Positions 53,488 to 54,435 of a stretch of DNA of 64,000 bases are shown here, piece by piece (position 1 is the first letter of the stretch; each line of letters starts with the position of its first letter). The notes beneath the pieces are model-generated. The model was not told where the DNA came from, made no database searches, and saw only the letters and a program-made list of their open reading frames with translations. The stretch is from a virus (taxonomy: Duplodnaviria; Caudoviricetes): positions 1 through 64,000 of the IMG/VR virus record IMGVR_UViG_3300046710_000151. One strand, written 5' to 3'. Position numbers and translations under genes: made by a program.

Positions 53488-53811
53488 ATGGACAATCAAA
53501 CGACTACTGCATTAAACGATCTGGCACCGCAAGCGGTCGCTGAGATCAAGAACTATTTTCAATCGACGGTGGACAGCGAGGACAGCGCCTACAAACGTGC
53601 CGACCTCGGGCTCAAGGTCTTGGGGCGGGTCAACGGCAACGATTCCAACCGAATCAAAGTGCTGGCACTCCAATTCCAGGTGGCCCGCATGATGGGCGTC
53701 AAGGGAGATATGCTGCGTCCGCTGTTGGCGGAACTGAATCCGGCTCTTGCGACTGCCGGGGTAATTGCTGCTCCTCAACCCGTTGTTGGGGCTTTGTCTC
53801 CAGCGGCATAG
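53488..53811 (+). CDS. 107-aa helical protein between the effector and the array
   Basis: Starts 5 nt after the effector stop with an AAGGA RBS; its stop lies in the first repeat. Confidence 0.75.
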   Translation: MDNQTTTALNDLAPQAVAEIKNYFQSTVDSEDSAYKRADLGLKVLGRVNGNDSNRIKVLALQFQVARMMGVKGDMLRPLLAELNPALATAGVIAAPQPVVGALSPAA

Positions 53812-54435
53812 GACTTTGTGGAAGGAACTGAAGGGAACCGACACCAACCCCGGACCCACGGCGCAGCGAGTAGGGACATGGAAGGAACTGAAGGTTGTCG
53901 AGCCCGTGTGCTGGTTTGGGCGCAGCATGTAGGGAATGTAGAAGGAACTGAAGGGTGCAAGGCCCGTCTGCCTTATGCCGCCTGGGCGCAGCAAGCACGG
54001 AATGCGGAAGGAACTGAAGGCAATAAGGCTTTCACACTGCGTCGGCGCAGCAGGGAATGCGGAAGGAACTGAAGGACTGATGAACTCCGCGCCCATTCGG
54101 GGCACGCCGGGGGAAGGAACTGAAGGGACTCGACAGCGCTCTCTACCGGCGCAGGAAGTAGGGAATTCGGAAGGAACTGAAGGGCATCGGGTCCGAACAG
54201 CCCGCGCCAGTCGAACGGAATGCGGAAGGAACTGAGGGTTGCAAGGCGGCAACACGGTAGGTTGCGGAACCGCCTCGAATGTGGAAGGAACTGAAGGAAG
54301 CATAGATCCGGTTCCGAATCGACTGAACCAGCCGTAGCGCAGCGAGTTGGTGAATAGGAAGGAACTGAAGGCGATACTCTTCATCCGCGGCGTTCTTGGC
54401 GCAGCGGGTTAGGTGAATAAGGAAGGAACTGAAGG
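53800..54435 (+). CRISPR. CRISPR-like array, 11 repeats, invariant 3' core GAAGGAACTGAAGG
   Basis: Core at 53821, 53881, 53941, 54007, 54062, 54113, 54170, 54225 (one mismatch), 54284, 54358 and 54422; looser ~36-nt consensus GGCGCAGCnnGTAGGGAATGCGGAAGGAACTGAAGG; unique ~20-37 nt spacers. Confidence 0.85.

Follow-up and report, generated by a model that had tools for sequence, protein, structure and literature searches.

Nuclease-dead Cas12f proteins with CRISPR arrays have already been published. In Bacteroidota, a nuclease-dead Cas12f (dCas12f) serves sigma-E-coupled, RNA-guided transcription (Hoffmann et al., Nature 2026, PMC13472631; PDB 9n9c), and the same paper briefly notes a dCas12f cluster that adjoins CRISPR arrays and is predicted to repress genes. 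A "dCas14" of a huge phage, which is without a catalytic residue, was proposed to repress a host gene, and phage CRISPR loci were reported to lack adaptation genes in general (Al-Shayeb et al., Nature 2020, PMC7162821). Standalone CRISPR repeat-like (cr-like) regulatory RNAs have repeats that are partial or degenerate and are still loaded into the effector (Shmakov et al. 2023, bioRxiv 10.1101/2023.03.03.530964). Here we describe a locus that is different from the published systems in its 107-amino-acid (aa) partner protein, its separate scaffold RNA, its carriage by a phage, and a repeat reduced to the 14 to 15 nucleotides (nt) that pair with the scaffold. It lies in the window, by which we mean the whole 64,000 nt analyzed, i.e., the first 64 kb of the 76.6-kb soil phage record IMGVR_UViG_3300046710_000151 (73% complete by CheckV). 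The order of its parts, 5' to 3' on the + strand, is scaffold RNA, effector gene, partner gene, and guide array. We consider it likely that the array is a CRISPR array that has been reduced far, in a type V-F-like phage system made up of the scaffold RNA, a dead Cas12f-like protein, the partner, and the array. The literature that we searched held no description of arrays reduced to the scaffold-paired end of the repeat.

A sequence-only reading of the window had pointed to a type V guide array with an invariant 14-nt core at the 3' end of a heavily drifted repeat. A motif scan confirmed that the core is exact in 10 of the 11 copies and that the periods are as listed in that reading. The exact core, GAAGGAACTGAAGG, starts at positions 53821, 53881, 53941, 54007, 54062, 54113, 54170, 54284, 54358, and 54422; the remaining copy, GAAGGAACTGAGGG, starts at 54225 and carries a single A>G change at 54236. 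Successive units are 60, 60, 66, 55, 51, 57, 55, 59, 74, and 64 nt apart (range, 51 to 74 nt). All 11 cores are on the + strand within 53821-54435. By chance, 0.33 cores would be expected with up to two mismatches allowed, and none of 100 shuffles reached 12.

Mean pairwise identity between units is 0.987 in the core, where 153 of 154 positions are unchanged. Over the 22 nt on the 5' side it is 0.64, in line with the variability reported earlier; this exceeds the null value of 0.51 (standard deviation, 0.017) and therefore indicates a repeat half that has drifted yet is still homologous between units. Identity over the first 20 nt on the 3' side equals the null value (0.50 in both cases), so the spacers are mutually unrelated, and the kinship among spacers that the sequence-only reading had regarded as fatal to its own proposal was not seen. 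Within the drifted half, the motif GGCGCAG is exact in six units (2, 3, 4, 5, 7, and 11). Units 8 and 10 carry an altered form of it, and units 1, 6, and 9 have none. It had been described as lost in units 6, 8, and 9, which holds for units 6 and 9, whereas unit 8 has an altered copy and the changes in units 1 and 10 had been missed. Partial conservation also reaches 8 nt upstream of the core (GGAATGNG, in 7 to 10 of the 11 units). A canonical array has near-identical repeats of about 23 to 50 nt; here, 14 nt are invariant and about 22 nt are recognizable. The spacers are unique in sequence, with identity at the chance level; the periods vary between 51 and 74 nt. Tandem Repeats Finder saw only 1.9 copies at the array, which makes it plausible that standard CRISPR finders would miss it, as had been suspected.

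The gene between the scaffold RNA and the partner gene encodes a nuclease-dead Cas12f-like protein. An AlphaFold2 model of the effector (predicted local distance difference test score [pLDDT], 86.9) matched AsCas12f over its whole length in Foldseek (8j12_A; E = 7.8e-17; about 380 aligned columns) and also matched the published dCas12f (9n9c_A; E = 3.6e-13). The sequence itself had no Pfam match, a weak match to the NCBIfam model guided_TnpB (E = 0.0018), and no visible sequence-level match to 9n9c. We found 32 homologues among metagenomic proteins. A profile built from the homologues had Cas12f or TnpB chains as all of its best matches in the PDB, at marginal significance (E = 0.012 for Cas12f). 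In the family alignment (alignment A1), the RuvC-I position reads ATLGP where the aspartate would sit, and RuvC-II reads LTVMGL, aligned to IQMEDL of AsCas12f and without an acidic residue. A long helix forms the C terminus at the place of the zinc finger and RuvC-III, both of which are absent. As the RuvC catalytic residues are missing, the complex would bind DNA rather than cut it. A HMMER scan of 1.84 billion representative proteins returned 126 clusters at E <= 1e-3; such a low number indicates a small family that stands clearly apart from mainstream TnpB and Cas12f.

In many of the homologues, the called N terminus extended upstream through conserved "peptide" islands between variable insertions, a pattern that pointed to conserved noncoding DNA. 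We aligned this upstream region from 11 loci, i.e., the window and 10 homologous loci (alignment A2), in which the blocks CGAGGC and GCCGCA are invariant. Two helices were paired in 97% of cells (28 to 56% in slid controls). They contained 13 double-change cells; shuffling gave 2.6, and not one of 500 shuffles had as many as 13. This covariation indicates that the region directly 5' of the effector gene is a structured RNA, which we call the scaffold (Table 1).

The core can be written as two 7-nt halves joined by an A, the first half facing anti-repeat 1 of the scaffold and the second facing anti-repeat 2. In the window, GGAAGGA complements anti-repeat 1, and CTGAAGG complements anti-repeat 2 with a terminal G.U pair. 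In all 10 of the 10 loci, anti-repeat 1 and repeat positions -15 to -9 are exact reverse complements, and the loci comprise four haplotypes (anti-repeat/repeat): TCCTTCC/GGAAGGA in the window, TCCTCTC/GAGAGGA in related loci L001, L003, L013, and L016, TCTCCTC/GAGGAGA in L004, L009, L010, and L012, and CCCTGCTC/GAGCAGGG in L002. Anti-repeat 2 has the haplotype TCTTCAG/CTGAAGG in most loci, TCCTCAG/CTGAGGG in L016, and CTTTCCC/GGGGAAG in L002. All mismatches between the anti-repeats and the repeat ends are G.U, which argues for RNA pairing and not for a DNA motif. The variant core of the window likewise keeps its pairing as G.U. Of 149 units found through the anti-repeat 1 target alone, 102 have the consensus in the last seven bases; 14 of the 19 single changes in these 7 nt keep pairing, whereas pairing would survive only 4 of the 21 single changes that are possible (the counts are not independent events). 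The invariance of the core is thus explained by the pairing of its halves with two scaffold anti-repeats that covary with the repeat, and the earlier suggestion that each guide handle is under selection gains support. Two-part pairing of this type resembles that described for Cas12f guide RNAs. The trans-activating CRISPR RNA (tracrRNA) with anti-repeats that is expected of type V-F is thus predicted here in silico.

Longer versions of the scaffold carry an extra hairpin (L004, 2925-2960; L010, 345-370; L012, 1040-1062; L013, 2110-2135). Its loop (e.g., TTCAGTTC or CAGTTCTCC) complements the core center GAACTGAA, overlapping the anti-repeat 2 target, and may, judging by this complementarity, offer an alternative or competing pairing.

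For comparison of the arrays, we drew on assemblies, IMG/VR, and JGI metagenomes, which yielded 16 distinct loci homologous to that of the window. All of those that could be judged were on phage-like contigs, mostly from soil. Repeats were always present 3' of the effector and partner genes, and they were of two kinds. Canonical arrays occupy this position in L001, L002, L016, L017, and L018, with identical repeats of 36 to 37 nt, periods of 70 to 77 nt, and unique spacers of 35 to 37 nt. Most canonical repeats end in GGAACTGAAGG. L001 contains seven copies of GTCGCAGGAGTCGAGCGTTGAGAGAGGAACTGAAGG with a period of 71 to 73 nt, and the last 11 nt of this repeat are those of the window core. Similar arrays are present in L018, L016, and L002. 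Canonical arrays at the same place and with the same repeat 3' end, together with the Cas12f fold of the neighboring protein, bear out the assignment of the window array as a type V guide array.

Nine other loci (L003, L004, L005, L008, L009, L010, L012, L013, and L014) have minimal arrays, in which 12 to 29 copies of a core of about 15 nt are the only repeats (examples are GAGAGGAACTGAAGG, GAGGAGAACTGAAGG, GAAGGGGACTGAAGG, and GAGGAGAGCTGAAGG). Among the 147 periods in the minimal arrays, the median is 38 nt, and lengths of 30 to 39 nt are the most frequent. Full-length and minimal repeats are mixed in L005, L008, and L014. In most cases, a minimal array is split into two blocks that flank the partner gene. 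The window array is intermediate in form, with periods of 51 to 74 nt and a 5' half that has drifted and is still recognizable. In a midpoint-rooted maximum-likelihood tree of the effector proteins (partial sequences excluded), canonical-array loci take the basal positions. The window clusters with L008, a mixed locus, and these two are sister to a clade with minimal arrays throughout (support, 91/90). Taken with the array forms, the tree indicates that repeat reduction is a trend of the lineage and not an accident in one phage. The sequence-only reading had called the array old and no longer acquiring spacers. The absence of Cas1 and Cas2 from the record agrees with this, whereas the arrays of relatives, with up to 29 short units and unrelated spacers, suggest streamlining and possibly the gain of units. 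The reduced arrays look like an evolved, streamlined state, possibly with another route of gaining units, and not like decay in a single phage.

Several further observations concern the placement of units in the relatives. Minimal arrays cover 4540-5810 in L003, 1870-3060 in L010, 3300-4600 in L013, 2240-3180 in L012, and 4130-4770 in L009, and the length of their units is approximately that expected of a mature guide RNA. Additional units lie 5' of the effector gene in L010 (540-730, between the scaffold RNA and the gene) and in L005/L007 (2811-2960), so array blocks can stand before, between, and after the two genes. Solitary units of a core plus a spacer are scattered in the genomes of related phages, kilobases away from the main array. 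On the contig of L003 (G001), they are found at about 110 in L229 and at 156, 372, 1100, 1126, and 1765 in L230 (reverse complement); on the contig of L005 (G003), they are found at about 108 in L226 and about 107 in L227. One is on the opposite strand, and several are a few bases before an ATG. A variant of the core also abuts the start codon of the partner gene in L004 (4578) and L008 (1329). The solitary units could be orphan guides, autoregulatory guides, or cores doubling as ribosome-binding sites. In the window, there are no solitary core units outside the array.

The partner gene starts 5 nt past the effector stop codon, and its own stop codon is at the start of array unit 1; we describe it as translationally coupled to the effector gene. 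Homologues with 39 to 63% identity adjoin the effector gene in 10 other loci and share an invariant motif that reads roughly LKLLGRINGNDSNRLK...LQFQ.AR..G.KGEPLRPLLAELNP. The protein matched no family in Pfam, PHROG, or NCBIfam. Neither the partner (alignment A3) nor the neighboring open reading frames (ORFs) matched a sigma or helix-turn-helix (HTH) family, except for a ParB-like gene further downstream.

Elsewhere, the window contains phage-type genes for a lambda-type terminase, a portal, and a tape-measure protein. The array occupies a 770-bp gap between genes and is separated from the scaffold by about 1.5 kb. The hairpin that follows the array has GCCGGGG-UCUU-CCCCGGC inside a longer stem and is without a T tract; the region 54436-54580 has a folding energy of -69.4 kcal/mol (z = -2.9). 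The hairpin may be the end of the array transcript. Consensus scans, which are uninformative either way, found no consensus terminator at this hairpin and no sigma-70 promoter in 51900-54900. Scans of the window for Rfam families and tRNAs gave no matches. Cas1 (PF01867) and Cas2 (PF09827) had no match across the 76.6-kb record, whereas control genomes did match.

Table 1. Positions of the features of the guide array locus and its surroundings in the window
Feature	Position	Strand	Evidence or remark
Scaffold (tracrRNA-like) RNA, 5' of effector gene	about 52204-52312	+	Alignment A2, helix covariation, anti-repeat covariation
Scaffold outer helix	52220-52223/52281-52284	+	Covariation
Anti-repeat 1, TCCTTCC	52226-52232	+	Directly after GGCTGAA
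Scaffold inner helix	52259-52263/52271-52275	+	Covariation
Anti-repeat 2, TCTTCAG	52264-52270	+	Loop of helix 52259-52263/52271-52275
Nuclease-dead Cas12f-like effector gene, 389 aa from GTG 52313	52313-53482	+	ORF open from 52151
Partner gene, 107 aa, conserved	53488-53811	+	Homologues beside effector in 10 other loci
Guide array, 11 units	53799-54460	+	Repeat analysis; homologous arrays at same position in relatives
Array unit layout			Drifted ~22-nt 5' repeat half, then invariant core GAAGGAACTGAAGG, then unique spacer
GC-rich hairpin directly 3' of last array unit	54476-54540	+	Folding energy
ParB-like gene, ParB HTH domain	54846-55799		PHROG 1033, E = 7e-21; 400 bp downstream of array

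Several results weigh against reading the array as a working set of guides. The first 30 nt of each spacer had no target in the whole 76.6-kb phage, as had been noted before for the window, and about 190 spacers from all loci had none in the phage or in any of the loci. A search of the array against GenBank phages gave chance-level matches only (E >= 2), five exact 20- to 24-mers from the spacers were absent from IMG/VR, and spacer matches in 301 Bryobacterales genomes were no stronger than those of a control query. Over 60 nt, units 2 and 3 share 81% of their sequence, so at least one unit arose by duplication, and the spacer of the duplicated unit may be drifting without constraint. There are only four haplotypes of anti-repeat 1 and three of anti-repeat 2, and their distribution tracks the phylogeny, which implies a small number of independent compensatory events. 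Cofolding energies did not distinguish cognate from noncognate scaffold/repeat pairs or from shuffled cores. With 27% of the genome estimated to be missing from the record (73% complete), adaptation genes might still be encoded outside the recovered part. Transcription, processing, the length and ends of the guides, DNA binding, and silencing are steps that we infer.

Spacers were shared among loci only between very close relatives. One stretch of the window, 54196-54218, has a 23-nt exact match near the 5' end of a coding sequence that occurs in several genomes of Bryobacterales (G006:C3:1302341-1302363). The product is presumably a His-rich metal transporter of the cation diffusion facilitator type, as read from its translation. 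We rejected this match as a target, as its first base is only the 13th of the spacer and its end extends into the drifted half of the repeat. It belongs to the background: an equal-length control from the effector gene gave as many and equally strong matches in the same 301 genomes. The match may hint at an Acidobacteriota host. A scan for the core pattern in GTDB genomes and IMG/VR returned mostly coding repeats, such as those of collagen-like genes. None of the GTDB representatives scanned had a prophage carrying the effector, and a peptide-pattern scan of them found no homologue.

The array could be a dead relic, decaying since it lost access to adaptation, with a core that is conserved merely because time has been short or mutation is biased. 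Drifted repeats, irregular periods, a record without Cas1 and Cas2, the failure to find targets, and the resemblance of units 2 and 3 to a drifting duplicate would all suit such a relic. Yet identity has fallen to 64% on one flank of the core and to the chance level on the other, while 153 of 154 core positions hold and the one change keeps pairing. The effector, partner, and scaffold RNA are moreover intact, with conservation in 126 or more clusters of relatives, and a whole clade maintains long arrays with perfect cores, so we think a relic unlikely. Decidedly unlikely, too, is a transcript that acts as a decoy or sponge by titrating the scaffold RNA or the effector protein, or that serves as a regulatory leader, with the spacers as filler. 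It would account for the conservation of the handle alone, for irregular spacer lengths, and for spacers to which no target was found. Filler made by duplication would be related, however, and these spacers are mutually unrelated; in minimal arrays they are rarely shorter than about 15 nt (periods are mostly at least 30 nt), which fits a minimum guide length, and the canonical arrays of basal relatives have unique spacers of 35 to 37 nt typical of acquisition.

Two further explanations do without guides altogether. The core might be a double-stranded DNA site, such as a partition centromere, iterons, or an operator array, recognized by the ParB-like protein or another phage regulator. Tandem centromere repeats have a precedent in sopC of the F plasmid, the ParB-like gene is only 400 bp from the array, and the core is itself a direct repeat (GAAGG-N4-GAAGG). 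In the relatives, it is nevertheless the Cas12f-like gene and the partner gene that the arrays accompany, and not ParB: RecT is encoded downstream in L001 and terminase in L002, and neither locus has ParB among the genes called within 6 kb. Sister loci hold canonical CRISPR arrays with the same repeat end, and the complementary sites upstream, which sit inside covarying RNA helices, deviate only toward G.U. We regard a DNA site as very improbable. It is hardly credible that the region encodes a repetitive protein, the other outcome that the sequence-only reading had seen as decisive against a guide array. A 290-aa ORF is indeed open on the - strand across the array (53512-54384), although long spurious ORFs are common at 59% G+C. 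Since 3 does not divide five of the 10 periods, copies of the core are found in each of the three reading frames, and none of the ORFs overlapping the array matched a Pfam family. On the whole, the interpretation given in the sequence-only reading is largely supported.

A reduced CRISPR array suggests the following mode of action. Transcription of the array, on the + strand, would accompany or immediately follow that of the effector and partner genes, and the transcript would probably be cut or trimmed into guides that consist of the repeat 3' end and about 16 to 25 nt of spacer. The scaffold RNA would pair with each core in a two-part duplex with one unpaired A between the halves, and the effector would bind this duplex, loading each guide. 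The 16 to 25 nt after the core would act as the guide, and the guided complex is predicted to bind, but not to cut, DNA that matches the guide. It would most likely silence genes, either those of the host or those of rival mobile elements. The 5' half of the repeat and the far end of the spacer would be dispensable for pairing and may have been subject to drift and deletion in this lineage, beginning once it ceased to use the Cas1-Cas2 integrase. Loss of these parts by deletion would lead to the irregular period.

A bolder proposal goes further, and we put it forward only tentatively, as a possibility that we ourselves find somewhat doubtful. The array may have been rebuilt as a string of near-mature guides (a handle of 14 to 15 nt plus about 16 to 25 nt), with units gained and shuffled without Cas1-Cas2, for example, by recombination at the 15-nt handle or by insertion of handle-plus-guide units. 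The window would then show the transition from canonical to minimal arrays, and the dead Cas12f, the partner, and up to 29 guides would form a multiplexed silencing device against hosts or rivals.

Among known systems, type V-F Cas12f (AsCas12f; PDB 8j12, 7wju, and 8dzj) likewise has a miniature effector with the same fold over its whole length, a separate scaffold (tracrRNA) that pairs with the repeat 3' end, and a guide 3' of the repeat; the basal relatives of the window likewise have the array beside the gene and 36-nt repeats. In contrast to type V-F Cas12f, the acidic residues of RuvC-I and RuvC-II, the zinc finger, and RuvC-III are missing here, and from this sequence the effector is predicted to be unable to cut. 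The present locus further differs in having no cas1, cas2, or cas4, in its extra 107-aa partner, and in repeats that are cut down to the paired 14 to 15 nt. TldR proteins are reportedly RuvC inactivated and C-terminally truncated, with some of their genes in prophages, and each is said to use a single omega-RNA-derived guide fused to its scaffold, with neither an array nor a separate tracr-like RNA. Like the effector described here, TldR is a nuclease-dead relative of TnpB and Cas12; it is also an RNA-guided DNA binder, as the effector is predicted to be (Wiegand et al. 2024, bioRxiv 10.1101/2023.11.30.569447).

The dCas12f of Bacteroidota (PMC13472631) and the present effector are both C-terminally truncated in RuvC and predicted to bind DNA under RNA guidance without cutting. 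Unlike the dCas12f-sigma-E system, the locus here is phage borne, has an unrelated 107-aa protein and no rpoE or HTH partner, and keeps its scaffold separate from a multiguide array, where the published system has a fused single guide RNA. The text of that paper, as searched, contains neither the word "degenerate" nor a mention of repeats reduced to the paired end. The arrays reported along with the "dCas14" of a huge phage (PMC7162821) are described as ordinary CRISPR arrays, whereas the phage described here is of medium size (at least 76.6 kb) and carries a degenerate array. The cr-like RNAs resemble the solitary core-plus-spacer units in relatives of the window phage; they are single autoregulatory elements, whereas here arrays of 11 to 29 units replace the CRISPR array.

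The window array is an intermediate that links canonical and minimal arrays. The natural sequences mark out the indispensable part of a Cas12f-type repeat, namely the approximately 15 nt that pair with the scaffold, and discarding the remainder of the repeat yields arrays in which guides are packed twice as densely as in a normal CRISPR array. Loci of this kind will escape standard CRISPR finders. Compact arrays of multiplexed guides for miniature Cas12f tools could also be designed after the natural handle of 14 to 15 nt. With these loci, a phage-borne family of at least 126 protein clusters is added to the nuclease-dead Cas12f regulators, and the question is raised of how 20 to 29 unrelated guides originate and turn over in arrays that have neither recognizable repeats nor adaptation genes.

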